From positions 1-10,289 of IMG/VR virus record IMGVR_UViG_2740892235_000015: a stretch of DNA of 10,289 bases, one strand, 5' to 3'. Source of the DNA: a virus (Duplodnaviria; Heunggongvirae; Uroviricota; Caudoviricetes). Below are positions 1 through 10,289 of the stretch, piece by piece (the first letter of the stretch is position 1; every line of letters begins with the position of its first letter). The notes under the pieces were generated by a model. The model was not told the origin of the DNA, ran no database searches, and saw only the letters and a program-made list of their open reading frames with translations. Both the position numbers and the translations under genes were made by a program.

Positions 1-1242
1 ATGGCGAGAAAAACACCCCCATTAACCACAGTACAGATCAAAGCAGCCAGACCAGCAGAAAAGGAATACACCCTACAGGACGGCGGAGGGCTTTTTCTCC
101 TGATCAAACCGTCCGGATCAAAACTCTGGAGATTTTCCTACTACCGACCATCGGACAAAAAAAGAATATTGCTGAGTTTTGGATCGCTTGATGATGTTTC
201 CCTGGCTGATGCCAGAAAACGCCGTAGCGAGTACAGGGCGTTAATTCGTGCCGGAACTGACCCGCAGGACCACGAGAGGCAAAAAAGAGAGACAGAGGCC
301 CGAAGACAAGGGAACACGTTCGAAAATGTGGCAACAGCATGGTACCAGGTGAAAATCAGCCAGAATCTGGCCCCCAATACGATTAAAGACATCTGGCGAT
401 CGCTGGAAAAATATGTATTCCCGTTCATCGGCAACACGCCAATAGACACCCTGACCGCTCGCAGGTTCGTTGAGGTGCTTACCCCCATCAAGGAACGTGG
501 CAACCTGGAAACGCTCAAGCGAGTTTTACAGCGTATAAATGAGGTAATGGATTACGCCGCCAATAGTGGGATGATTGATGCCAATCCGGCTATGAATGTG
601 CGTAAGGCGTTCCCCTCCCCTGTAAAAAAACATATGCCAACAATCCGCCCCGAACAGCTGCCGGAGCTTATGCAGGCTTTATCAGTATCGGCAACAGAAC
701 GGCAGACCAGATTACTGATTGAATGGCAGTTACTGACCGTAACCCGTCCCGTTGAAGCATCGTCGGCACGCTGGGAAGAAATCGACATGGAAGCGCAACG
801 CTGGACCATACCCGCCGGACGCATGAAGATGCGCCGCGACCACGTTATCCCGCTTTGTGACCAGGCTATGGCAGTGCTGGAGGCTATGAAACCAATCAGC
901 CACCACCGCGATTATGTTTTCCCGAGTCTGAAAGACCCACAGCAGCCGATGAACAGCCAGACCGCTAACGCAGCATTACGACGCATGGGATTCGCTGGCG
1001 TGCTGGTGTCTCATGGATTACGCGCCATATTCAGCACAGCAGCGAACGAAGAAGGCTTTGAGCCGGACGTAATAGAGGCCGCACTTGCCCACGTCGACAC
1101 CAACGAAGTCAGACGGGCATACAACCGGAGCAACTACATAGAAAAACGCATCGTGCTTATGCGCTGGTGGGGCGAATTTGTCGAGGCTGCGGCGACGGGC
1201 GTAACCCTCGCCAGTGGTAAAAGGGGTATCCGAGCCGTTTAG
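1..1242 (+). CDS. int: Tyrosine recombinase, P4/CP4-57-type phage integrase
   Basis: 413-aa ORF. C-terminal catalytic signature of tyrosine recombinases (SHGLRAIFSTAANE ... EVRRAYNRSNY with terminal Tyr) and an N-terminal arm-binding-like region. Followed by an alpA-like gene as in P4-like islands. The window starts exactly at its ATG, so the att site would lie upstream, outside the window. Confidence 0.93.
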   Translation: MARKTPPLTTVQIKAARPAEKEYTLQDGGGLFLLIKPSGSKLWRFSYYRPSDKKRILLSFGSLDDVSLADARKRRSEYRALIRAGTDPQDHERQKRETEARRQGNTFENVATAWYQVKISQNLAPNTIKDIWRSLEKYVFPFIGNTPIDTLTARRFVEVLTPIKERGNLETLKRVLQRINEVMDYAANSGMIDANPAMNVRKAFPSPVKKHMPTIRPEQLPELMQALSVSATERQTRLLIEWQLLTVTRPVEASSARWEEIDMEAQRWTIPAGRMKMRRDHVIPLCDQAMAVLEAMKPISHHRDYVFPSLKDPQQPMNSQTANAALRRMGFAGVLVSHGLRAIFSTAANEEGFEPDVIEAALAHVDTNEVRRAYNRSNYIEKRIVLMRWWGEFVEAAATGVTLASGKRGIRAV

Positions 1243-1340
1243 CTGTACAGAAAACCAGTAAAAACTACGAAAACCATTTAAAACCGTCGTATAATTGCAT
1301 CACATTTAACGACGAGGCCTTGAAAAATGAAACTGTTAAG

Positions 1341-1571
1341 ATGCAAACAAATTTCAGATGCAATTGCGACGGGCTGCAACTGGCCCTGATGGTTCAGCAT
1401 GAATTTTGGTCAACCTACGATCCGGAGGACAGAACGACGGCCCCATCAAAAAAACAGGTAGTAGATTTCCTGGTATCCCGTGGGGCTTCCAGAAATCTGG
1501 CTGTAAGTATTGATAAGGTTGTACGTCCGGCATCCATGAAGACCGGAGGCAGGCCAAAAAAATGGCGGTAA
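1341..1571 (+). CDS. Hypothetical small protein (76 aa from ATG 1341; alternative TTG start at 1320)
   Basis: ORF ends 10 nt before a canonical rho-independent terminator. A perfect -10 hexamer TATAAT lies at 1290-1295, with a poor -35. The overlapping minus-strand ORF 1354..1620 has a less protein-like composition. No recognisable domain. Confidence 0.3.
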   Translation: MQTNFRCNCDGLQLALMVQHEFWSTYDPEDRTTAPSKKQVVDFLVSRGASRNLAVSIDKVVRPASMKTGGRPKKWR

Positions 1572-1581
1572 CAATCCTGAA

Positions 1582-1605
1582 AGCGGCAGAAATGCCGCTT
1601 TTTTT
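1582..1605 (+). terminator. Rho-independent terminator
   Basis: Stem AGCGGCA / TGCCGCT (7 bp) with loop GAAA, followed by a run of 7 T. Confidence 0.6.
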
Positions 1606-1632
1606 ATAAATCCCTTTCAAATCATCAATATA

Positions 1633-1720
1633 AAAAACGGTGTATACCGTTTAAAAACGGTGAGTACTGTTTTTCCCTGCATCCGATGATTTACCGTATT
1701 TCTCACCGGAATACACCGGA
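1633..1720 (+). promoter_or_regulatory. Repeat-rich region upstream of alpA (candidate promoter/operator or recombinase-binding sites)
   Basis: Direct repeat AAAAACGGTG at 1633-1642 and 1653-1662 (20-bp spacing). Inverted repeat ACGGT-gtat-ACCGT at 1637-1650. Direct repeat ACCGGA at 1705-1710 and 1715-1720. GAGG SD at 1726-1729, 9 nt before the alpA ATG. Confidence 0.3.
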
Positions 1721-1738
1721 TTAATGAGGTAAATCACG

Positions 1739-1945
1739 ATGGAAGCAATCAAAAAAGTCATCTTTCGCCAGGAAGTAAAAAAACTTATCCACATTAAGGC
1801 AGACAGCACGCTGCAAAGCATGATCAACGCCGGAGAATTCCCGCAGGGTTTTCGTGTCGGTTTGCGCCGTCGCGGATGGTATGAGGAAGACGTAATCGCA
1901 TGGATGAAAGAACGAGAACAAGAAGCGCGCGGAACGACCGCTTAA
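1739..1945 (+). CDS. alpA: AlpA-family helix-turn-helix regulator (prophage excision/transcription activator-like)
   Basis: 68 aa. Sequence pattern typical of the AlpA family (KKLIHIKADSTLQSMINAGEFPQGFRVGLRRRGWYEEDVIAWMKE). Position immediately downstream of int. GAGG SD. Confidence 0.8.
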   Translation: MEAIKKVIFRQEVKKLIHIKADSTLQSMINAGEFPQGFRVGLRRRGWYEEDVIAWMKEREQEARGTTA

Positions 1946-2066
1946 CATATATAGGGCAAATGATGAACATAAAAAAAGCGGCCCCGAAATGGAGCCACCT
2001 TTCTGAACAATTAACCCGCTGCGCCGTATGTGTCAACAATCATAAGCCTGGGCATGATAACCGCGA

Positions 2067-2270
2067 TCAGGCTGGTGGGCAATTATCTTTCTTGTTGGGG
2101 CCGTATTGTGCTGCCATTTTCATCCGTTCAGAACGTGAATATTTTTTTAGAAACTCATCAAGGACAAAAGCGCATGGTGCGAATCTTTCTGATTCATGCT
2201 CGAGCGCCATATTTTCGTGCTCTCTGTTCGTTTTTTGCGATGGTGTATCGGTTGATTCTTTATTGGTCAT
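2067..2270 (-). CDS. Hypothetical small protein (67 aa), second gene of RHH operon 1
   Basis: Minus-strand ORF starting MTNKESTD. Its ATG and first three codons (ATGACCAA) lie inside the conserved R1 element directly downstream of the RHH gene. SD is weak (AGG). No recognisable domain. Confidence 0.45.
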   Translation of the reverse strand: MTNKESTDTPSQKTNREHENMALEHESERFAPCAFVLDEFLKKYSRSERMKMAAQYGPNKKDNCPPA

Positions 2271-2323
2271 TGTGTGTACCTGTAAAGCAATGCGCCGTAG
2301 TACCTCACGCCACGGCGCTGATG
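2263..2323 (-). repeat. R1 copy a: conserved intercistronic element with stem-loop
   Basis: 45-nt core at 2279-2323 is identical to 3460-3504. Contains a hairpin, stem GCGCCGT / ACGGCGC with a 13-nt loop. TTGGTCAT at 2263-2270 (the start-codon region of the downstream minus gene) is also shared, with an 8-nt variable spacer between. Confidence 0.85.
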
Positions 2324-2327
2324 TTTT

Positions 2328-2501
2328 TTATCCTTTGGGTTCAATACCGCGTTGCTGTAATTCTTTTCGGAGTACTCGCTTGATCCAGGTGGCTAAAGAA
2401 GTGTCACCGTCTGCTTTCGCTGCCTCTTCAAGTTGTGCTCTGAATTCTTCTGGTAGCCGCATTTGGTATGGAGGCGATCGCTTTTCCAATGGTGTTGACA
2501 T
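2328..2501 (-). CDS. Ribbon-helix-helix (Arc/MetJ/CopG-type) DNA-binding protein, 57 aa
   Basis: Hand translation of the minus strand gives MSTPLEKRSPPYQMRLPEEFRAQLEEAAKADGDTSLATWIKRVLRKELQQRGIEPKG. The MRLPEEF...L...A......S...WI...L pattern is a classic RHH strand-helix-helix. AAGGG SD 9-10 nt upstream. Not in the supplied ORF track, presumably because it is below the length cutoff. Confidence 0.7.
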   Translation of the reverse strand: MSTPLEKRSPPYQMRLPEEFRAQLEEAAKADGDTSLATWIKRVLRKELQQRGIEPKG

Positions 2502-2541
2502 GGTAATTACCCTTAATTACTATAGTTACATGGTAATTACC
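2498..2541. promoter_or_regulatory. Candidate operator: two copies of the perfect palindrome GGTAATTACC
   Basis: ACATGGTAATTACC at 2498-2511 and 2528-2541, 30 bp centre to centre, with a TAATTAC half-site between them (2514-2520). Lies in the divergent region abutting the RHH start codon and upstream of the rightward leader. Confidence 0.5.
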
Positions 2542-2569
2542 ATTGTACTTACCGTTATACAAAAAACAA

Positions 2570-2611
2570 CGCCCCGCAGTGGTGGCTCACATACGGGGCG
2601 TCTAACCAAAC
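2570..2611 (+). repeat. R2 copy a: leader stem-loop plus conserved TCTAACCAA tail
   Basis: CGCCCCG-ca-GTG-gtggct-CAC-ata-CGGGGCG (2570-2600) followed by TCTAACCAAAC (2601-2611), then GAGG SD and ATG at 2632. Same architecture as 3822-3860. Confidence 0.6.
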
Positions 2612-2631
2612 CATTAATTGAGGTAACGATT

Positions 2632-2718
2632 ATGGCTATAAAAGAGCATAGCTTACTCTTTATACACNNNNNNNNNNTTCGCTGGCGGTTATGCAACTTA
2701 GTGCTGATATGGCGCTGA
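2632..2718 (+). pseudogene. Probable degenerate or interrupted Ash/Icd-like paralog
   Basis: Starts MAIKEHSLLFIH, paralleling the MVAVNHIPHLVH start of the 3881 gene, with the same upstream leader element. Interrupted after 12 codons by the N run. Reads IWR then stop after the gap where the paralog has VWRFLAL. Frame across the gap is unknowable. Confidence 0.3.
2668..2677. other. Run of 10 N (unknown sequence, possible scaffold gap or masked bases)
   Basis: Directly visible in the sequence. Confidence 1.
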
Positions 2719-2767
2719 ATGAGGCCAAAGCTATCCTGATTGCTGATTGTGAAAATGGGGGGGGGTT

Positions 2768-3001
2768 ATGCGTGATGATCGTTTTTATTCCCTGAAACAA
2801 GAATTTTCCGGCGTATCTGATGATGCGGCTGATGCGCTTTCGTCAATGCCAGAACTTATTAGAGCGGCTTTTTTCTTACTTTCCACGAAAGAATATAAAT
2901 CAACGGGACTTGATGTACTGAATATCGCCGCCGATTATGCGGAATATGTGGCAGAGGCGCGTTACAGAAGAAAATTTCCTGAGGATGTAAGCCATGCGTG
3001 A
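2768..3001 (+). CDS. Hypothetical small protein (77 aa)
   Basis: ORF MRDDRFYSLKQEF... with helical, protein-like composition. A G9 homopolymer immediately upstream serves as the SD region. The stop overlaps the start of the next ORF (ATGCGTGA), suggesting translational coupling. The opposite-strand ORF 2859..3116 looks like antisense noise. Confidence 0.5.
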   Translation: MRDDRFYSLKQEFSGVSDDAADALSSMPELIRAAFFLLSTKEYKSTGLDVLNIAADYAEYVAEARYRRKFPEDVSHA

Positions 3002-3210
3002 TATTTACCACGAAACAACAGAACGCGTATTTCTTGCACTTTCTCACAGTGAAAACATGCTGGAAATATTGCGCATATGGCTTGAAACACTTGGCGACAA
3101 TGAACGCGACAAACAAAAATCAAGAATTGTCACGGCATTAATAACGCTTCTTGAGCCTGTAATAAATGAGTTGCAGGAAATAGAGACATTGCACGACAGA
3201 TATAACGAAC
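2994..3210 (+). CDS. Hypothetical small acidic protein (at least 72 aa; 3' end lost in N run)
   Basis: ORF MRDIYHETTERVFLALSHSENMLEILRIWLETLGDNERDKQK..., with GAGGA SD at 2981-2985. Net acidic and helical. Runs into the N run at 3211, so the true stop is undefined. The 292-aa extension in the ORF track is antisense to real minus-strand genes and is not credible. Confidence 0.45.
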
Positions 3211-3220
3211 NNNNNNNNNN
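3211..3220. other. Run of 10 N (unknown sequence, possible scaffold gap or masked bases)
   Basis: Directly visible in the sequence. Lies between convergent genes. Confidence 1.
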
Positions 3221-3223
3221 TAC

Positions 3224-3451
3224 TCATCCTGGCGGGCGATTCTTACGGGACTTTAGCCGCCGTGGGCAGCTTGCTAAAAATGCCTCCAACGCGAATAGTC
3301 CAGGTTTCATTTCTATCGGTATTAGTTGGATATTCAGAGGATTAGCCAGTTCGGCTTCAAGGCGAGCACAGGTTTCTAACTGCCTTTGCCGAATGATTTC
3401 ATCTTCTTGCGTATGCGTGTCTTGTATTGGTGATAGTGTGTTGTTGGTCAT
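3224..3451 (-). CDS. Hypothetical small protein (75 aa), second gene of RHH operon 2
   Basis: Minus-strand ORF starting MTNNTLSP. Start region ATGACCAA is shared with the 2067..2270 gene and embedded in the R1 element. The stop codon is reached before the N run, so the ORF is complete as shown. No recognisable domain. Confidence 0.45.
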   Translation of the reverse strand: MTNNTLSPIQDTHTQEDEIIRQRQLETCARLEAELANPLNIQLIPIEMKPGLFALEAFLASCPRRLKSRKNRPPG

Positions 3452-3504
3452 GGTACTGCCCTGTAAAGCAATGCGCCGTAGTACCTCACGCCACGGCGCT
3501 GATG
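3444..3504 (-). repeat. R1 copy b: conserved intercistronic element with stem-loop
   Basis: 45-nt core at 3460-3504 is identical to 2279-2323. TTGGTCAT at 3444-3451 is also shared. Sits between the stop of RHH gene 2 and the start of the downstream small gene. Confidence 0.85.
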
Positions 3505-3508
3505 GTGA

Positions 3509-3688
3509 TTATTCTGATTCTTTGGCCTTGCGACGCTGGCGGTATTCAACTTCCCGCTTTAATGCAGCTGTAACAAACTGCCCTGTACTTTCGCCGGGCA
3601 TTTTTACCGCCTCAACATTGTTCATAACTTCATGTGGAACCCTTGCCGCAACTGTTTGTGATTTTGCGTTTACTGCTTTTGTCGCCAT
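3509..3688 (-). CDS. Probable ribbon-helix-helix DNA-binding protein, 59 aa
   Basis: From ATG at 3688: MATKAVNAKSQTVAARVPHEVMNNVEAVKMPGESTGQFVTAALKREVEYRQRRKAKESE. RHH-like strand (TVAARVPHEV) followed by two short helices. GAGGGG SD 8 nt upstream. The ORF-track start at 3697 is a GTG. Confidence 0.6.
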   Translation of the reverse strand: MATKAVNAKSQTVAARVPHEVMNNVEAVKMPGESTGQFVTAALKREVEYRQRRKAKESE

Positions 3689-3717
3689 GTTGAGCACCCC
3701 TCATAAAAAACAAATGC

Positions 3718-3814
3718 AGTATGCAGGAAAAAAAATAAGTGTTCAACACTTGACGTGTTTAACACCTCGATTTAAATTGGTGTTCAACACCTTATTTAGG
3801 CAAGGTGTTGAAAC
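3718..3814. promoter_or_regulatory. Divergent promoter/operator region of module 2
   Basis: Rightward sigma70-like promoter: -35 TTGACG (3750-3755), 17-nt spacer, -10 TAAATT (3773-3778). Leftward: -35 TTGAAC (complement of 3741-3746), 17-nt spacer, -10 CATACT (complement of 3718-3723). Inverted-repeat motif GTGTT-N-AACAC at 3739-3749, 3755-3765 and 3780-3790, plus a half-site variant at 3805-3814, overlapping both promoters. Confidence 0.5.
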
Positions 3815-3820
3815 GACGAA

Positions 3821-3860
3821 ACCCCGCACTGTAGGAGCAGTAACGGGGCTTCTAACCAAC
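3821..3860 (+). repeat. R2 copy b: leader stem-loop plus conserved TCTAACCAAC tail
   Basis: CCCCG-c-ACTG-taggag-CAGT-aa-CGGGG (3822-3848) followed by TCTAACCAAC (3851-3860), then AGGAG SD and ATG at 3881. Both stems differ in sequence from copy a but keep the same architecture. Confidence 0.6.
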
Positions 3861-3880
3861 AACGTAAACTAGGAGCCGTT

Positions 3881-4444
3881 ATGGTTGCTGTAAATCATAT
3901 ACCACACCTTGTACACACACAAACTGCCTTTGTGTGGCGTTTTCTGGCCCTGAATATCGGAGAAAAAAACCAGTTGATCGCCAGTGTCGAAAATAGCTAT
4001 GATTCCCGCGCACCTCATAAAACGGGTGTCGGGATTAGCCTCCTGAAAACAACTGAAGCGCACAGCACGCGCCCCGCGTGTTTTTTTGTGCCGCATAGTC
4101 ACACCTTATCAATGGTGGGCTGTACGGGGGCGGAGCAATCCGCGCCGGTTTCTTCAGTGTCCGGTAAGGCTAACCCTGTACAGTCCGCCACCAGCGAAAT
4201 TAGCCTTTTGCGTGGCGGTTATCTTAACCACACTGAGGAGGCTGCCAACATGGCTACTACCCCTGCCCTCGTACATTCTCAAACAGCCTTTATCTGGCGC
4301 TTTATTGCCTTTGGCGCGTCAGACCATCAAATCATCCACGTAACCGCCTGGACGGAACGCGAAGCGCGTAACCGTTGCCCGTACGGTTGTGTTGCTGTGT
4401 TCGCCGCCCGTATTCGTCAGGGGGCGCACCATGCACAATTATGA
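3881..4444 (+). CDS. Tandem-repeat protein, possibly Ash/Icd-like (P4-associated family)
   Basis: 187 aa with an internal duplication: LVHTQTAFVWRFLAL near the N-terminus and LVHSQTAFIWRFIAF around residue 130. AGGAG SD at 3871-3875. An in-frame internal ATG at 4250 is preceded by GAGGAGG (4235-4241). Family assignment is from memory of Icd-like sequences (FxWRF and NRC motifs) and is unverified. Confidence 0.55.
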   Translation: MVAVNHIPHLVHTQTAFVWRFLALNIGEKNQLIASVENSYDSRAPHKTGVGISLLKTTEAHSTRPACFFVPHSHTLSMVGCTGAEQSAPVSSVSGKANPVQSATSEISLLRGGYLNHTEEAANMATTPALVHSQTAFIWRFIAFGASDHQIIHVTAWTEREARNRCPYGCVAVFAARIRQGAHHAQL

Positions 4445-4631
4445 AGCGCACTTACCTGTAGTTCTTAATGTGCCGTCAGATTATACGGGACGCGTTTTGA
4501 TATTTCTCGATAAAGGGAAAGTGAAATCACAATGCCGCCTTAGAAATAATGAGGTTGTTGGTTCTCTGGCTTTTTTTTCTGAGGCCTGTATTCGTGCCGG
4601 AATAAAACTTGAATCACTGACAGGAAAATAA
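4431..4631 (+). CDS. Hypothetical small protein (66 aa)
   Basis: ATG at 4431 preceded by a GGGGG SD. Overlaps the 3' end of the upstream gene by 14 nt. No recognisable domain. Confidence 0.4.
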   Translation: MHNYEAHLPVVLNVPSDYTGRVLIFLDKGKVKSQCRLRNNEVVGSLAFFSEACIRAGIKLESLTGK

Positions 4632-4636
4632 AAACC

Positions 4637-4936
4637 ATGAAAAAGAAAAATTCTGGCTTTACTGCCAGTGACTTCTCTCGGCCTGAAATCCGCCCCGGCG
4701 ATATTTTCCGTGATAACTACGGCGGTACGGTAACGATTAAAGGCGTGGCAGAACGGCGCATCACCTACCGTCGTGAAGGCTACGAATATGATTGCGTGAT
4801 GCCTGTTTATCAGTTCCGGCGTGATTTTTCTCTGGTACAGACCGCGCCGCATAACGTGCCCACCTGCAGGGAGAAAGCACGCGCCAATATTCAGAAGATG
4901 AAAAACATGATTAACGGATTCAGGGGCAAGAAATGA
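4637..4936 (+). CDS. Hypothetical protein (99 aa)
   Basis: ORF with AGGAAA SD-like sequence. Its stop overlaps the start of the replication ATPase gene (ATGA), suggesting co-translation within the replication operon. Confidence 0.5.
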   Translation: MKKKNSGFTASDFSRPEIRPGDIFRDNYGGTVTIKGVAERRITYRREGYEYDCVMPVYQFRRDFSLVQTAPHNVPTCREKARANIQKMKNMINGFRGKK

Positions 4937-6330
4937 AAAGCGCACCGAACTTAAAAAAACAGCCTTACGACAAGATGACCGAAGTCATCATTTTTGCGGG
5001 TAGTGATGCGTGGGCACATGCGAAACAGTGGCAGGAACAGGACGGGCGACTGGCTGGCGATAATGTGCCTCCCATTGTGCTGGCTGATGATCAACTGGAT
5101 GAACTGGCAGACCTGAGAATCATCGACGAGGGGCGCTATTGTGTCCGGCTGTACAAGGCAGGCCACATCAGGCCATCAAATATTAATGCCATTGCGCACA
5201 AGCTGGCGGCGGCGGGCGTAACTGATGCGAATTATTACCCCGAAGGGATACACAGCCAGAAGCGGGAGAACTGGCGCGAATATCTGGAACGGGAGCGGGG
5301 GAAAAAGCCAGGGGAAGAACACCACCAGCGAAAAACCACGCTACCGATGAGCGTTGGATCTGCCGGATACGACACGCAATTAGATTACGTGGTAAAGGGG
5401 ATTATTCCGGCATCGTCGCTATGCAGCATATACGGGGCAAGCGGTTCCTATAAATCATTCCTTGCGGGTTCGTGGGCGTGTCACGTTTCCACGGGCCGCC
5501 AGTGGGGAGGCCGCAGGGTGGCGCATGGCGCTGTTCTCTATGTGGTTGGTGAAGGCGGTATCGGCGTTCCGCGTCGTGTAAAAGCCTGGGAGGTTGTGCA
5601 CGGTGAGCAGGTGAAAAATCTGTATCTGGTAAACCGTCCAGTTTTTCCGGCTGTCCCGCTTGATGTTGATGAACTGGTTATCGCTGCCCGTCAGGTGGAG
5701 CGGGAAACGGGTAAACCTGTACGCATGATTATTCTTGATACTCTGGCGCGTTGCTTTGGTGGCAATGATGAAAATGATTCCCGTGATATGGGGGCGTTTA
5801 TCCGTGGGTGTGACGAGCTTAAACGGCGCACAGGGGCCACGGTGCTGGTGGTTCACCATTCCGGCAAGGATGAGACGAAAGGCGCGCGCGGTTCCAGTGC
5901 ATTTCGTGCATCACTGGATGCTGAATACCGGATACGCAGGGAGGACGCAGGAAGCGAAGCGCTGGTTATCTCATGCACCAAAATGAAGGACGCGGAGGAA
6001 CTCAAAGAAGCCGCATATGACTTACGCGTGGTGGAGCTTTTTACCGACGCTGACGGGGAGTTAATCACGTCGCTGGTGGTGGTGGATAAGCCGCGCCCTC
6101 CCGTTGAACTGGAGCGCATCGAGGAGGCAGGCAACAAGACGGAAAACCATACCGCGCTATGGGGATGCATACGTTCACGCACACAGCACGGCGACAAGTG
6201 CACGATCCCGCTGTTACGTGACGATATGAAAAAGCTGGGGTATGACACAAAACACCTTAAACGATGGTTAGCCAAACTGGAAAAAGACGACGTGATCTAC
6301 ATTGACGGTGATGATGTAGGACCACTGTAA
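4933..6330 (+). CDS. Replication ATPase/helicase, RecA-fold (RepA/AAA_25-like) with uncharacterised N-terminal domain
   Basis: 465 aa. Walker A GASGSYKS (aa 168-175), Walker B-like RMIILDT, and a VVHHSGKDETKG motif typical of RepA-like RecA-fold helicase-ATPases. The iteron array starts immediately after the stop codon. Confidence 0.88.
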   Translation: MKSAPNLKKQPYDKMTEVIIFAGSDAWAHAKQWQEQDGRLAGDNVPPIVLADDQLDELADLRIIDEGRYCVRLYKAGHIRPSNINAIAHKLAAAGVTDANYYPEGIHSQKRENWREYLERERGKKPGEEHHQRKTTLPMSVGSAGYDTQLDYVVKGIIPASSLCSIYGASGSYKSFLAGSWACHVSTGRQWGGRRVAHGAVLYVVGEGGIGVPRRVKAWEVVHGEQVKNLYLVNRPVFPAVPLDVDELVIAARQVERETGKPVRMIILDTLARCFGGNDENDSRDMGAFIRGCDELKRRTGATVLVVHHSGKDETKGARGSSAFRASLDAEYRIRREDAGSEALVISCTKMKDAEELKEAAYDLRVVELFTDADGELITSLVVVDKPRPPVELERIEEAGNKTENHTALWGCIRSRTQHGDKCTIPLLRDDMKKLGYDTKHLKRWLAKLEKDDVIYIDGDDVGPL

Positions 6331-6532
6331 AAAGTGGGCATTAAAAGTGGGAAAGGTGGGCAATTTAACGGAATTTTAACAAAATTACCCACTTTCCCAC
6401 GTGTATATATCCCAAAAAGTGGGCACTAAAAAAATACCTATGAAACAAGATGATATAAATCCCAAATTTCCCACGTTGGACGAAGTGGGAAAACGTAAAA
6501 AGTGGGCGAAAAAAGTGGGTAGAGGTGGGCAA
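6331..6532. repeat. Iteron array, candidate origin of replication
   Basis: About ten copies of (A)AAGTGGG(C/A)A or GGTGGGCAA in both orientations: direct at 6331-6340, 6343-6354, 6354-6363, 6416-6425, 6483-6493, 6497-6508, 6511-6520, 6522-6532; inverted at 6388-6400 and 6467-6474. An AT-rich stretch lies between them (6365-6412). Confidence 0.6.
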
Positions 6533-6784
6533 ATGACTCAAAAACACAGAGACAGAACAGAGCCAAAATATAAAGCGTTAGACATGACAGAGCACGCCTT
6601 AAAGGTGGCAATCAGAACGATAGACCGCCACGCGGGGGAAGGATACGCGAAGGAACATCCCGACCTGATAAGCGCATTCATGACCACAGCAGCAGCAAAC
6701 TTTGCCACGCTGACAGAACGGGAGATTGCCGAAGCGGAACAGGTAACAACAATCAACGTTAAAACCGGAGAGGTGGAATCATGA
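6533..6784 (+). CDS. Hypothetical protein (83 aa)
   Basis: ATG at 6533 with GAGG SD at 6522-6525. Start chosen downstream of the iterons rather than the ORF-track start at 6401. Stop overlaps the SSB start (ATGA). Confidence 0.5.
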   Translation: MTQKHRDRTEPKYKALDMTEHALKVAIRTIDRHAGEGYAKEHPDLISAFMTTAAANFATLTEREIAEAEQVTTINVKTGEVES

Positions 6785-7203
6785 CAGCACAGATAGCCGC
6801 TTACGGGCGGCTGGTGGCTGACCCACAGTTAAAGACCACCAGCAAGGGTACACAAATGGCGATGGCGAGTATGGCTGTCCCCCTGCCGTGCAGCCAGGCC
6901 GATGACGGAACGGCGACGATGTGGTTATCCGTCCTGGCGTTTGGCAGACAGGCCGACGCACTGGCAAAACACCACAAAGGCGAACTGGTGAGCGTGGCGG
7001 GTAACATGCAGGTGAGCCAGTGGACAGGCCAGAACGGCGAAACGCGGCAGGGCTGGCAGGTTATCGCTGACAGCGTAATCAGTGCCAGAACGGCGCGACC
7101 AGGTGGTAAAAAAGGCCAGCAGGGCCAGGCTACTGACGCACTGAACAGGGCAAAACAACAGGCGGGTAACGATGATCCGTACGGGGATAACATACCGTTT
7201 TAA
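6781..7203 (+). CDS. ssb: Single-stranded DNA-binding protein (SSB-like)
   Basis: 140 aa. OB-fold-like core resembling SSB (AFGRQA...KGELV.V.G.MQ...WT.Q.GE.R.GW). Gly/Gln-rich linker and a C-terminal acidic tail ending DNIPF, like the DDDIPF tail of bacterial SSB. Confidence 0.75.
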   Translation: MTAQIAAYGRLVADPQLKTTSKGTQMAMASMAVPLPCSQADDGTATMWLSVLAFGRQADALAKHHKGELVSVAGNMQVSQWTGQNGETRQGWQVIADSVISARTARPGGKKGQQGQATDALNRAKQQAGNDDPYGDNIPF

Positions 7204-7219
7204 GCAACGAGTGACAGAA

Positions 7220-7241
7220 GCCGGAGCAATCCGGCTTTTTT
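7220..7241 (+). terminator. Rho-independent terminator
   Basis: Stem GCCGGA / TCCGGC with loop GCAA, followed by T6. Lies 17 nt after the SSB stop. Confidence 0.7.
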
Positions 7242-7248
7242 GTAGGTA

Positions 7249-7430
7249 CTCCTGGTGGGGGTGGCCTGTCCACGGGGCGGGCGGCGCGGAAAAAAGCGCA
7301 TTTTTTGATTTTTATGGCACCATCACCACCACTATAAGTTATTGATATATTGAAGAATAAAAATTTTTAGTGTCGAATCAGGTTGTTTTTTGTTCATCAC
7401 TGGAGCGTTCCCGAAAGCATTTACAAAAAA
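7249..7430 (+). repeat. R3 copy a: duplicated intergenic control module
   Basis: GC-rich block at 7249-7312 nearly identical to 9786-9850. Shared TATAAGT (7333-7339), AGGTTGTTTTTTGTTC (7380-7395) and TTTACAAAAAA (7420-7430), with the same spacings as in copy b. Confidence 0.8.
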
Positions 7431-7669
7431 ACAGGCGCAAAAAAAGCGCCCCCGATTGCTGTTACCGGAGGCGCTTTTACACGACAAAGGAGTTTTTATC
7501 GCCAGGATGACGAGTCTTAATATTGCTTCAATAGCAAAAATGCGTCAATGGCTTTGCCTCTCTGAGAATAATCAGAAAAATCATAATCTGATTTTATGGT
7601 AGAAAATAATTTATCTATTACTTTTATCGATCAATAATGATGCCCGTTAATCAAAACGGAGGCGGATTT

Positions 7670-7864
7670 ATGCCAGAGAACAACACCAGAAAGCCGGATA
7701 AAAGTGCCACGGTACACATAGACGCCGGAACTATGGAGAAGATCGAACGCTATCAGCAGTTCATCAAAGATAATCACCCGGGTATGCCAGTGCCCACGAA
7801 AGGACAAATCACACGCAGCGCGGTTGAATACTGGTACAGGGCAACGTTAGGAGCCTGGCTATGA
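7670..7864 (+). CDS. Hypothetical small protein (64 aa)
   Basis: ATG at 7670 with GGAGG SD at 7658-7662. Stop overlaps the start of the protease/capsid gene (ATGA). No recognisable domain. Confidence 0.5.
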   Translation: MPENNTRKPDKSATVHIDAGTMEKIERYQQFIKDNHPGMPVPTKGQITRSAVEYWYRATLGAWL

Positions 7865-9750
7865 AAACATGGTTTTCCATTAAGGCTATGGCAGATGTTG
7901 TACATGTGCGCATTTATGACGAGATCGGCGGGTACGGTGTAAAAGCATCGGCACTTACTGACGAGATCAACGCGTGTGGTAATGCGTCTGAAATCCATCT
8001 TCGCATCCATTCACCTGGTGGCGACATCTTTGAAGGGCTGGCTATCTATAACGCTCTGAAAAATCATCCGGCAAAAAAAATCGTACACATTGAAGGCATG
8101 GCGGCTTCTATGGCGTCGTTTATTGCCATGTGTGGAGATCACATCGTTATGCCTGAAAACGCGATGATGATGATACATGCCCCCCGTGGTGTTACTGCCG
8201 GAGTGTCGGGCGACGTTCGCCGCTTTGCTGATCTGATGGACAAGCTGGGCGACACGATGGCAGAAACCTATGCCGGAAGAACGGGCAGGAGCAAACAGGA
8301 GATCACCTCAATGATGGAGGCGGAAACCTGGATGGATGGCAATGAGTGTAAGGCTAACGGCTTCGCAGATGAGGTTATACCCGCGATTACAGCAATGGCC
8401 CGAATTGAATCAAAACGAATCGGAGATTTTTCAAATATGCCGGAAAAAATTAAAAGCATGATCAGCCAGAAAACTGGCAGTGGCGAACAGGAACGACTTA
8501 ACGGAATCCGTGAATTGTTTGGCACCTTCAACGGAAGATATAACGACCTGGCTATAAGTTGTCTTGCGGATTCAGAATGTAGCGTTGAGAATGCACGCGA
8601 ACGCCTTTTACTCGCTATGGGTAAAGAATCAACGCCAACAAACAAAACCACCCCCGCAAATCTTTACTACGCGTACACGGATAACGGCAATATAACTGGC
8701 GATGCCATGCGTCAGGGGCTTAATGCGCGTCTTGGTCACGAACGGGCCGAACGCGGTAATCCTTACGCCATGATGAGTCTTTTCGATATGGCACAGGCAT
8801 CATTAACCCATCGTGGTATAAGCACGGGCAGCTACAGCACACGCTCGCAGATAGTAAACGCGGCATTCACCCACAGCAGCAGCGATTTTACAGATATCCT
8901 TGCTGGTGGCGCTGAAAAATCAGTGCTTGCAGGCTGGGAGCACAGCGGCGAAACATTCCGCCAGTGGACGAAAAAAGGTTCCCTTTCAAACTTCCGGGAA
9001 GCCCGCCGCGTTGGTATGAATGGCTTCTCAACGTTAAACAAAGTGCCGGAAGGGGCAGAATATAAATACATCACCACCAGCGATCGCGGTGAACCCATCG
9101 CGCTGGCTACTTACGGGAATATTTTCAGCATTACCCGCCAGGCGATAATCAATGATGACCTTGATCAGTTATCAACGGTGCCAATGGCTATGGGCCGTGC
9201 AGCATCAAGAACGGTGGGAAATCTGGTTAATCTGGTGCTTACAGGCAACGTAAAACTTTCTGACGGAATAACGCTGTTTGACAAAAAACACAGCAACCTG
9301 ATTGAAGCAGGACTGACAACACCGGGACTTAGTGCAGCACGTCACCTGATGCGCACACAGAAGGACAAAAATGGCGAAGTGCTGAATATTGCGCCTAAAT
9401 TCCTTTTAGTTCCGGCAGCACTGGAAGATCGCGCGTTGCAGATGATTAACTCAACCGCACCTTTCGGGGCTGATAAAAACAGCGGGATCTTTAACCCGTA
9501 CCACAAGCTACTTGATATCATCGTCGATCCCCGCCTTGATGATATCAGCGAAAAACAATGGTACATGCTTTCCGCACAGGGAACGGACACAATCGAGGTG
9601 GCTTATCTTGATGGCAATGACGAGCCTTACCTTGAACAGCAGGAAGGTTTTATCGTTGACGGCGTGGCCTGGAAAGTCCGTATTGATGCAGGTGTGGCAG
9701 CTCTGGATTATCGCGGTATGGTCAAATCAGGCGGTACCGATTCACTATGA
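7861..9750 (+). CDS. Prohead protease (ClpP-like, S14) fused to HK97-like major capsid protein
   Basis: 629 aa. The N-terminal ~190 aa match the ClpP pattern (IHSPGGDIFEGLAIYNALK ... GMAASMASFIAMCGD ... MMIHAPRGV, compare ClpP INSPGG, AASMGAF, MIHQP). The C-terminal ~300 aa resemble the HK97-fold major capsid family. A linker or scaffold-like region lies between. AGGAG SD. Confidence 0.88.
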   Translation: MKTWFSIKAMADVVHVRIYDEIGGYGVKASALTDEINACGNASEIHLRIHSPGGDIFEGLAIYNALKNHPAKKIVHIEGMAASMASFIAMCGDHIVMPENAMMMIHAPRGVTAGVSGDVRRFADLMDKLGDTMAETYAGRTGRSKQEITSMMEAETWMDGNECKANGFADEVIPAITAMARIESKRIGDFSNMPEKIKSMISQKTGSGEQERLNGIRELFGTFNGRYNDLAISCLADSECSVENARERLLLAMGKESTPTNKTTPANLYYAYTDNGNITGDAMRQGLNARLGHERAERGNPYAMMSLFDMAQASLTHRGISTGSYSTRSQIVNAAFTHSSSDFTDILAGGAEKSVLAGWEHSGETFRQWTKKGSLSNFREARRVGMNGFSTLNKVPEGAEYKYITTSDRGEPIALATYGNIFSITRQAIINDDLDQLSTVPMAMGRAASRTVGNLVNLVLTGNVKLSDGITLFDKKHSNLIEAGLTTPGLSAARHLMRTQKDKNGEVLNIAPKFLLVPAALEDRALQMINSTAPFGADKNSGIFNPYHKLLDIIVDPRLDDISEKQWYMLSAQGTDTIEVAYLDGNDEPYLEQQEGFIVDGVAWKVRIDAGVAALDYRGMVKSGGTDSL

Positions 9751-9756
9751 CAACAA

Positions 9757-9778
9757 GGCGGCACCAGCCGCCTTTTTT
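9757..9778 (+). terminator. Rho-independent terminator
   Basis: Stem GGCGGC / GCCGCC with loop ACCA, followed by T6. Lies 7 nt after the capsid gene stop. Confidence 0.7.
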
Positions 9779-9785
9779 GCGGGTC

Positions 9786-9969
9786 CTCCTGGTGGGGTGG
9801 GCCTGAACACGGGGCGGGCGGCGCGGAAAAAAGCGCATTTTTTTGATTTTATCGTCATCATCATCATGTGTATAAGTGATTGTTTTTAATTATTTTGATG
9901 TGAAAAAGATGATGAAGAAGGTTGTTTTTTGTTCGACATCTTTTAGCGTGACAGATTCTTTACAAAAAA
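9786..9969 (+). repeat. R3 copy b: duplicated intergenic control module
   Basis: GC-rich block at 9786-9850 nearly identical to 7249-7312. Shared TATAAGT (9871-9877), AGGTTGTTTTTTGTTC (9919-9934) and TTTACAAAAAA (9959-9969). Confidence 0.8.
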
Positions 9970-10007
9970 TCTGAGCTTGTTTTCTTCACCAGCGCGATGG
10001 GGGCACA

Positions 10008-10289
10008 ATGACAGAAGCCGAAATACTGGGATTAATCCGTCGCGTTGCCGGAATCAGCCAGCAGGCTGACGAACAGGCCACGCAGCCGGACAGCGTGACC
10101 GCCGAAAATTATGCGCGTGTGGTTGCTGAGGTGATGCGCCGTGATGGTATTGAGCTTAACGGCGTGGATATGCGCAACATACGAACCAGAGTCCTTGAGT
10201 TGCTGGCATACCGTCGCCGCGTGGAGATGTATCGGGAGAAGGAGAAAATCACGTATCACTGGAAGAAGCCGGAGCGGTTACGGCGGTAA
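10008..10289 (+). CDS. Hypothetical protein (93 aa); its position after the capsid gene suggests a head-completion or connector role, unverified
   Basis: ORF with GGGGG SD. First gene after the second R3 module. The window ends at its stop codon. No motif recognised with confidence. Confidence 0.5.
   Translation: MTEAEILGLIRRVAGISQQADEQATQPDSVTAENYARVVAEVMRRDGIELNGVDMRNIRTRVLELLAYRRRVEMYREKEKITYHWKKPERLRR

Follow-up and report, generated by a model that had tools for sequence, protein, structure and literature searches.

Two hairpins ahead of rightward reading frames

The DNA described here, hereafter the window, comprises 10,289 nucleotides (positions 1 to 10,289 of the IMG/VR virus record IMGVR_UViG_2740892235_000015, Caudoviricetes). 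It is an enterobacterial phage-satellite island which harbours two similar hairpins, each located shortly ahead of a rightward open reading frame (ORF). Copy 1 (2570-2611) reads CGCCCCG-CA-GTG-GTGGCT-CAC-ATA-CGGGGCG-TCTAACCAA and is followed by the Shine-Dalgarno (SD) sequence GAGGT and an ATG at 2632. Copy 2 (3822-3860) reads CCCCG-C-ACTG-TAGGAG-CAGT-AA-CGGGG-CT-TCTAACCAA and is followed by the SD sequence AGGAG and an ATG at 3881. Hairpins, TCTAACCAA tails, SD sequences and start codons had been pointed out at these places in a first interpretation made from the letters alone (the sequence-only reading), and they are confirmed by the sequence and by the covariance model (CM) matches described below. 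With moderate confidence, and on grounds of sequence and predicted folding, we favour the interpretation that each of these “leader stem-loops” is the plus-strand shadow of stem-loop 2 (SL2), the terminator of a predicted cis-antisense RNA of ~80 nt which would block translation of the first rightward gene.

The two copies differ in the reading frame they precede. The description of both as lying upstream of Ash-like genes applies to copy 2, whose ORF matches the Pfam family Phage_ASH (2.7e-11), while copy 1 is followed by a 12-codon stub which runs into a run of ten N (N10, 2668-2677) and which corresponds in relatives to an unannotated remnant of an Icd/Ash-like N-terminus. A small regulator gene of the YlcI/YnfO family (3509-3688, minus strand; NCBIfam YlcI_YnfO_N, 2.1e-16; annotated as YlcI/YnfO in relatives) lies ~130 nt past the putative terminator of copy 2. 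In the copy 1 module a small regulator-like gene (2328-2501, minus strand) shows weak similarity (YlcI_YnfO_N 4.8e-4, under the curated cut-off; Arc 0.008). On the plus strand, promoter scan and sequence reveal a promoter-like TTGACG-17-TAAATT (3750-3778) among GTGTTnAACAC operator-like repeats and, in the copy 1 module, a promoter-like TTGACA-17-TACTAT (2495-2523) among ATGGTAATTACC repeats. A transcript starting from the former site would include the complement of the entire predicted antisense RNA. The operator-like repeats, ATGGTAATTACC twice in module 1 (2500-2511, 2530-2541) and GTGTTnAACAC three to four times in module 2 (3740-3750, 3756-3766, 3781-3791, 3805-3814), overlap the rightward promoter-like sites; presumably the divergent YlcI/YnfO-type regulators bind there.

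Conservation and spread of the hairpin

When 160 related loci were searched for the plain string TCTAACC, dozens of hairpin variants emerged ahead of this motif. A CM made from 32 variants (CM R1) was used to search 161 sources and finds exactly two matches in the window, copy 1 with 69.5 bits and copy 2 with 67.8 bits (E about 1e-10). Altogether it detects 117 copies in 106 of the 161 sources (two in the window, 115 in related loci), the positive taxa including E. coli, Xenorhabdus, Citrobacter, Kosakonia, Pantoea, Leclercia and Phytobacter. Every one of these 117 strong matches runs antiparallel to the helicase gene or early operon, and matches in genome loci are found about 0.8-1.5 kb upstream of the helicase gene. 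In other genera TCTAACCAA is relaxed to the complement of TGGTnArA.

Covariation in a larger alignment of homologous islands, which the sequence-only reading had named as one check on its proposal, is clearly present: within the 13-pair helix double changes occur at 9 of 13 pairs, the observed values being reached in 0 of 500 shuffles, and controls with slid alignments drop to 34-54% paired. To this extent the sequence-only reading is supported: the rightward operon is headed by a functional RNA element whose structure is conserved, and the setting is one of antisense-RNA regulation. The compensatory changes claimed between the two window copies themselves are limited to one inner pair (G-C versus C-G), as the outer stems have the same sequence and differ in length only.

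When both copies were compared with Rfam 15 on both strands, nothing near threshold was obtained. Within the phage collection the hairpin is likewise without a match, and it is the isrK/C4 part of the region alone which matches phages. The downstream part of the region, taken alone, has matches in 898 of the 5,426 complete E. coli genomes, O157:H7 and Nissle 1917 being among them. The use of the hairpin variant as a marker of immunity type was considered and rejected, since it has no one-to-one link with regulator or first gene. One and the same variant is found with several regulators and several first genes across loci, and therefore a role in immunity specificity cannot be claimed.

The selected structure lies on the minus strand

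A structure that is conserved while its sequence drifts leaves the strand undecided; counts of G·U versus A·C cells settle it. Read on the minus strand, the helix cells of the 32 variants comprise 41 G·U and one A·C, and in a set of 56 distinct hairpins there are 71 cells with G·U on the minus and C·A on the plus strand, and a single cell with the reverse. In these 56 hairpins 93.5% of cells are paired on the minus strand versus 83.7% on the plus strand; for the 13-pair helix in the 32-variant alignment the minus-strand value is 94.6%. In nearly every variant the minimum free energy is lower by 4-13 kcal/mol on the minus strand. The copy 1 hairpin alone folds with -23.6 kcal/mol (z -4.2) on the minus strand versus -18.4 kcal/mol on the plus strand, and the complete predicted RNAs fold with -34.0 versus -23.9 (copy 1, 87 nt) and -30.6 versus -23.4 kcal/mol (copy 2, 86 nt). 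A conserved A-rich stretch which precedes the hairpin on the plus strand constitutes a U-run on the minus strand, the T count in the 10 nt after the stem amounting family-wide to 6.0 on the minus versus 1.28 on the plus strand. The G·U to A·C ratio of 71:1, the U-run and the fold energies demonstrate that it is a minus-strand RNA structure which is under selection.

In view of the same three observations, the sequence-only reading of a 5' leader structure on the plus strand is not supported. Such a cis-acting structure within the rightward mRNA, with a role in stability, processing or riboregulation, now appears improbable to us. It is true that the plus strand folds better than shuffled sequences (copy 1 -18.4 kcal/mol, z -2.9; copy 2 -14.2 kcal/mol, z -2.4), that the element sits between promoter-like sites and SD sequence, and that under an antisense model the plus-strand hairpin would still be the physical target. 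This is opposed by the 71 cells which pair on the minus strand only versus one pairing on the plus strand only, by the lower plus-strand pairing, and by CM scores which do not exceed 19.5 bits on the plus strand compared with 37.5-78 bits on the minus strand. Moreover, the conserved 5' A-run has no plus-strand rationale, and the “small internal loop” described earlier is an artefact of reading the plus strand, where its positions are C·A mismatches, whereas the minus strand pairs them as G·U.

The G·U bias also bears on a DNA-level explanation, i.e. a protein-binding palindrome, a cruciform or a recombination junction between exchangeable modules. In its favour, the left and right sides of TCTAACCA assort independently across loci, and the same hairpin occurs with several regulators and first genes. 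A DNA palindrome, however, would require Watson-Crick symmetry on both strands; the 71:1 bias therefore argues for selection at the RNA level and on a single strand, and mosaicism is expected around any short conserved block. We rate this explanation as even less probable than the plus-strand one. A nut-type site, composed of a boxB hairpin and boxA, was rejected on sequence and strand: TCTAACCAA is devoid of the boxA U-run and relaxes in other genera as given above, and selection on the neighbouring helix acts on the opposite strand. The boxA consensus is GCUCUUUAACAA / CGCUCUUA.

Judged by its anatomy, the hairpin is a putative unidirectional intrinsic terminator facing leftward: on the minus strand a GC-rich stem-loop with a stem of 13-15 pairs is followed by the U-run. 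In the Xenorhabdus indica locus L030 a consensus terminator scan calls the hairpin a terminator. The same scan calls neither of the window copies, as loop or bulge lie beyond its limits.

In the capsid-forming phage-inducible chromosomal island (cf-PICI) L164 of O157:H7 strain 3384 an annotated plus-strand “hypothetical protein” of 248 aa (6267-7010) crosses the terminator hairpin (6954-7017), and no divergent regulator is annotated. This ORF call may be spurious, or this type of island may be regulated differently.

A second hairpin and the parts of the predicted antisense RNA

On the minus strand, SL2 of copy 2 is predicted at 3818-3852 (the mirror of the 3822-3850 stem-loop; CM R1 match 3801-3862), followed by the U-rich tail UUUCGUCGUUUC at 3806-3817. 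SL2 of copy 1 is predicted at 2568-2602 (the mirror of the 2570-2600 stem-loop; CM R1 match 2551-2612) and is followed by the U-run UUGUUUUUUGU at 2557-2567. Just upstream of SL2 on this strand there is a second covarying hairpin, stem-loop 1 (SL1). Folds, RNAalifold and pair counts place SL1 and its linker at 3853-3886 in copy 2. In copy 1 SL1 has the sequence AUAGCCAUAAUCGUUA-CCUCAAU-UAAUGGUUUGGUU (2603-2638, minus strand) and folds with -8.3 kcal/mol (z -2.6). From 30 diverse sequences RNAalifold predicts SL1 and SL2 independently, with a consensus energy of -48.5 on the minus versus -37.5 on the plus strand. In the same 30 sequences 96.2% of the cells of both stems are paired, double changes are seen at 13 of 21 pairs, and the basal SL1 pair (base pair 7-40) is G·U in 27. 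The SL1 fold is more stable on the minus than on the plus strand in all 56 distinct sequences, and its z-score is below -2 in 30 of 55.

SL1 mirrors the translation start of the opposite strand. Its 5' arm AGCCAU complements ATGGCT, the start codon and its successor, an anti-SD sequence CUCC or CCUC resides in the loop or the adjacent stem, and the 3' arm UGGUU together with the AGA linker is the complement of TCTAACCA (copy 2: 3851-3858). Specifically, SL1 of copy 2 carries the anti-AUG (CAU) in the 5' arm and the anti-SD CUCC in the loop, while SL1 of copy 1 has the anti-SD in or beside the loop and ends in UGGUUAGA, the complement of TCTAACCA (2601-2608). The predicted target of copy 2 on the plus strand (3871-3883), i.e. 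the SD sequence AGGAG at 3871-3875 and the start codon at 3881-3883, belongs to the first rightward ORF with its ash/Icd-like N-terminus and is wholly overlapped by the predicted antisense RNA. Conserved, covariation-supported stem-loops thus overlap the SD sequence and start codon of the target.

We would like to add that the module of regulator and predicted antisense gene occurs in tandem, with two copies in the window (2260-2323 versus 3441-3504) and three in the related locus L001 (2573-2635, 3252-3313 and 4000-4061). Every module comes with a separate small regulator pointing leftward and with separate operator-like repeats, and its predicted antisense gene is complete; the upstream modules retain the first ORF as a stub only.

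A putative antisense promoter within a shared N-terminal cassette

For copy 2 a -10 hexamer, TATGAT, is predicted at 3894-3899 on the minus strand, inside codons 5-7 of the ash-like ORF, with a predicted -35 hexamer TTGTGT at 3917-3922 (17-nt spacer) and a predicted start at about 3887-3889. In copy 1 the predicted -10 hexamer TATGCT lies at 2645-2650 (minus strand) and the -35 position falls in the N-run (2668-2673). The copy-1-type stub of L001 shows the same TTGTGT-17-TATGCT arrangement, and its likeness to the ash-type N-terminus fades, as judged by eye, a few bases past the -35 hexamer. Across four families of first ORF the best -10 of a position weight matrix (PWM) clusters 42-46 nt upstream of the hairpin, and the implied transcript start is the first base or two of SL1. 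The -10-like hexamers of these families are TATGAT, TATGCT, TAGACT, TAAGAT and TATAAT, with a TGn extension in type B; TAnnnT is retained where the encoded amino acids differ (H to S; RNHT to KDLI). In L030 a consensus scan of 350 nt calls one promoter (TTGCCA-16-TAAATT) and one terminator, both on the minus strand and about 65 nt apart. From this arrangement we infer the antisense promoter and its start site.

The putative promoter is embedded in a conserved cassette. Its 14-codon N-terminus, MADTQHTQTRPKFT, is common to Icd-like proteins of ~80 aa and to Xenorhabdus primase-helicases of ~870 aa. In 16 Xenorhabdus genes synonymous codon identity reaches 94% in the first 16 codons versus 65-79% elsewhere, and conservation across genera ends sharply at the putative -35 hexamer. 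In the Xenorhabdus loci L030, L009, L017 and others (about 3917-6600) MADTQHTQTRPKFT is fused to a zinc-finger primase/Toprim/RepA-helicase protein. The nucleotide block persists even in L028, where the reading frame is interrupted after 10 codons by a 2-nt deletion.

Proposed mechanism

A short leftward transcription unit would overlap the start of the rightward early operon. Its RNA of ~80 nt (or ~100 nt, if TAAATT serves as -10) would start about 6-8 nt inside the first rightward ORF, its -10 hexamer lying in codons 5-7, and would consist of SL1 with the anti-start-codon in the stem and the anti-SD in or beside a 7-nt loop, the AGA linker, the GC-rich SL2 and the U-run. The invariant TCTAACCA would then be nothing but the complement of the SL1 3' arm UGGUU and the linker. 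Since this RNA would be fully complementary to the rightward leader, the weaker mirror hairpins of the latter would offer matching loops. Most likely the antisense RNA would pair with leaky rightward transcripts, occlude SD sequence and AUG of the gene which heads the operon (in Enterobacteriaceae an Icd-like or Ash-like one, in Xenorhabdus a primase-helicase) and possibly trigger cleavage, thereby forming a post-transcriptional second lock alongside the divergent protein regulator. Strong rightward transcription after induction would titrate the antisense RNA and interfere with its convergent promoter. The unidirectional terminator would in addition shield operators and the YlcI/YnfO-type regulator region from leftward transcription. 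Both expression of the antisense RNA and translational repression are inferred from sequence features.

Several observations weigh against this proposal, most of them concerning the promoter. The predicted window promoter TTGTGT-17-TATGAT has 8 of 12 matches and stays under the threshold of a standard scan, which at a type-B locus calls no minus-strand promoter at all. The best promoter PWM scores reach 8.2 versus 6.8 for shuffled sequences, a modest excess, and in the commonest family there are two candidate -10 hexamers, TATGCT or, 22 nt further upstream, TAAATT. As the conserved block partly encodes a genuine motif of the Icd family (HTQT...F.W.F), protein constraint contributes to its conservation. 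Furthermore, the SL1 of AU-rich Xenorhabdus variants folds weakly (z about 0 to -1). Finally, the lists from cross-linking and analysis of cDNA with Hfq (Hfq-CRAC) in O157:H7 Sakai hold no entry labelled Sp16, SpLE2, SpLE5 or SpLE6, a weak negative since the island is unmapped in Sakai.

The same strand and terminator evidence would equally fit a leftward terminator or attenuator which produces no discrete regulatory small RNA. As an insulator it would prevent stray leftward transcripts from entering the region of operators and regulator; as a leaky attenuator it would lie in the leader of a leftward regulator mRNA whose promoter is inside the first rightward gene, resulting in a face-to-face switch as in P2 and 186. 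This explanation draws support from the small regulator gene which follows on the same strand 67-135 nt past the hairpin in most loci, and no strong separate regulator promoter was found. Yet, an O157:H7 island retains the element (60.5 bits) without any leftward gene beyond it, and a pure insulator leaves the conserved, anti-SD-displaying SL1 as well as the fixed -10-like hexamer unexplained. As for the attenuator version, SL2 and its U-run resemble an efficient terminator, and therefore the downstream regulator gene would be starved. We consider a terminator without a regulatory RNA unlikely, albeit the most serious of the competing explanations.

In the literature searched, no antisense RNA with this location is described for phage-inducible chromosomal islands (PICIs), cf-PICIs or Icd-like genes. 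Two entries of the EcOnc table of O157:H7 Sakai (PMC4104026) were tried as candidates and rejected, EcOnc48 lying in core arn/pmrD DNA and EcOnc54 in prophage Sp6. The latter, an Hfq-bound small RNA on the minus strand (about 4127-4188 of L165, equivalent to NC_002695.2 1577126-1577187), is flanked by a leftward regulator and a rightward antirepressor gene. This immI/sar-like layout is reminiscent of the present arrangement, its sequence being unrelated.

If the proposal of a repressing antisense RNA is true, it adds a post-transcriptional lock on Icd-like division inhibitors and replication genes. It would, in addition, explain why unrelated first genes have the same 14 codons and why annotation pipelines make odd “ash” or hypothetical ORF calls at this place.

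Relation to the C4/CI and isrK/seqA RNAs

The sequence-only reading had likened the hairpins to the immunity RNAs of P4 (CI) and P1 (c4) and had suggested an Rfam search, in particular with the C4 model. The hairpins remain without a match, and the C4 model instead matches 4108-4195 on the plus strand (75.4 bits), next to an isrK/seqA-like RNA at 4010-4086 (plus strand, 62 bits by Rfam) which is directly preceded by a promoter-like TTGATC-18-TATGAT (3974-4003). The isrK and C4 models of Rfam detect relatives of P4 seqA and CI (PMC10111431, PMC4825925). Focused searches at E up to 10 revealed no match of the C4 model at 3780-3930 or 2530-2667. Conversely, 13 diverse hairpin-bearing loci are without C4 or isrK, and P4 gives no CM match for the hairpin even with search filters off. 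In view of these findings the suggested kinship does not hold, and the hairpin element is not the C4/CI system. Searches by nhmmer with the single C4 or isrK sequence, which find 18 and 12 loci, respectively, are too insensitive to map C4 across all loci.

It might still be argued that the hairpin is an upstream target site, similar to seqA or to a1/b1, of the C4/CI antisense RNA encoded downstream. By eye the loop CACUGUAGGAG of copy 2 pairs with the C4 loop UUUCUUCAGUG at 10 of 11 positions, and a duplex scan assigns -26.2 kcal/mol to the pairing of the copy 2 hairpin with C4. This energy, however, ranks only 187th of 2001 windows, while better duplexes are formed in this noisy scan by the icd ribosome-binding site (RBS; position 4210, -33.6, rank 15) and the isrK-like region (position 4030, -30.2, rank 53). 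In locus L085 a C4 match at the window's own nhmmer score (78.4 bits, the likeness being one of score only) is accompanied by a different hairpin. Taking into account also the 13 loci without C4/isrK, the lack of the hairpin in P4 and the acceptance of the isrK match as seqA homologue in the literature, we have largely rejected this idea, to which we attach hardly any credence.

The noise of the duplex scan arises from GC-rich repeats at 7251 and 9791 which score best; these strongest duplexes of the C4 probe, located at 116-nt repeats, are probably spurious. Locally, the C4 hairpin-2 region finds its best partners in the icd RBS (4210-4250) and, at about 4030, in the isrK-like region.

Comparison with known antisense systems

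With regard to function, P22 sar, plasmid countertranscripts and type I antitoxin RNAs come closest to the predicted RNA. In phage P22 the sar RNA of the immI region (RF00262), a cis-antisense RNA of ~68 nt with two stem-loops, is directed against the leader and RBS of ant and blocks translation. The predicted RNA resembles it as a short antisense RNA with two stem-loops facing the leader and RBS of an early gene, in the case of sar within the immunity region of a temperate phage. In contrast, the sar model reaches 12.3 bits (E 6.3) against a gathering score of 43, and this on the plus, i.e. the wrong, strand. Moreover, the hosts of the present element are satellites and PICI-like islands, its target is an Icd-/Ash-like or primase gene, and the predicted promoter lies inside the first codons of the target.

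Plasmid countertranscripts (R1 CopA, IncB/IncI RNAI, countertranscribed RNAs (ctRNAs) and the R1162 antisense RNA) are likewise short and run antisense to the leader of a replication gene. Produced constitutively, they have GC-rich stem-loops with bulges, apical loops which vary, and a last hairpin which serves as intrinsic terminator. In Xenorhabdus, where the first gene encodes a primase-helicase, the similarity extends to the target. Rfam scores are, however, at chance level (R1162 17.9 bits, ctRNA_pGA1 11.7 bits), and the present element is borne by chromosomal islands or satellites.

RNA-based repression of icd/kil-type genes heading an early operon would be shared with P1/P7 c4 and P4 CI (RF01695; with P4 seqA/isrK), and a genuine C4/isrK system is present in the window 150-350 nt downstream of the hairpin. 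C4/CI RNAs, however, are encoded on the same strand as their targets, are processed from the leader and act via short loop complementarity, whereas the present element lies on the opposite strand, has its own predicted terminator, occurs without C4 and is absent from P4. Type I antitoxin RNAs such as Sok of hok/sok are also small cis-antisense RNAs spanning the initiation region of a potentially toxic small protein, and Icd is a cell-division inhibitor. Unlike these, the cassette also heads genes for non-toxin primase-helicases; there is no sequence relation, and no toxin or addiction phenotype is implied.

In Gram-negative PICIs and cf-PICIs the switch-on has been described as proceeding through alpA (bioRxiv 10.1101/2022.09.08.507074). 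An RNA layer acting at the start of the replication operon was found neither in the literature searched nor in Rfam 15. The Rfam int-alpA RNA (RF02996, 42 bits), which in a Xenorhabdus island (L004, 491-559) separates int from alpA, has no match in the window.

On a wider view, the element would represent an unrecognised countertranscript family of ~80 nt which acts as a general second lock on the early/replication operons of Gram-negative satellites (PICIs, cf-PICIs and relatives), including specificity of the apex and multi-specific immunity. We regard this extension as speculative and somewhat less probable even than the terminator without a regulatory RNA. If true, the promoter would be embedded in the first codons of whichever gene heads the operon, and the hypervariable apex of SL2 would determine specificity via loop-loop recognition of the mRNA mirror hairpin. 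Co-resident islands would thereby avoid mutual silencing or deliberately silence each other, and arrays of modules, of which the window has two and L001 three, would provide multi-specific immunity towards related satellites.

Further features of the island

Apart from the region discussed so far, the window encodes a tyrosine integrase (1-1242), a DUF4222 protein (4637-4936), a RepA/AAA_25 helicase (4933-6330), an SSB (6781-7203) and a ClpP-protease/capsid fusion (7861-9750). Close relatives of the island in E. coli, O157:H7 among them, adjoin roxA, and the cf-PICI EcCIEDL933 shares this site and the gene set of these close relatives (bioRxiv 10.1101/2022.09.08.507074).

The ORF of 187 codons annotated as “ash” (3881-4444; Pfam Phage_ASH) runs in frame through the isrK/seqA-like RNA and the C4 RNA into the genuine Icd-like coding sequence (4250-4444). 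The “Ash” protein call may thus largely correspond to translated conserved RNA genes.

Between the N10 runs at 2668-2677 and 3212-3221 lies a piece of 532 nt (2678-3211) whose counterpart in L001 (4976-5506, 88% identity) is found between icd and DUF4222. This suggests a scaffold join or the misplacement of a contig. As the ORFs 1900-2718 and 2994-3872 read across the N runs, and as the piece sits elsewhere in L001, these ORFs are artefacts.

Directly after the helicase gene (6327-6520) iteron-like repeats GTAAAAAGTGGGC / AAAAGTGGG are present in at least three direct copies ~84 nt apart, in addition to inverted copies; this region is likely the replication origin of the island. A direct repeat of 116 nt (84% identity) occurs on both sides of the protease-capsid gene (7231-7344 and 9768-9882). 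It consists, in this order, of a terminator-like hairpin with a T-run, the GC-rich CTCCTGGTGGGG...GGGCGGGCGGCGCGG, GCGCGGAAAAAAGCGC(A)TTTTTT and TATAAGT, and may constitute a repeated control region of late genes.

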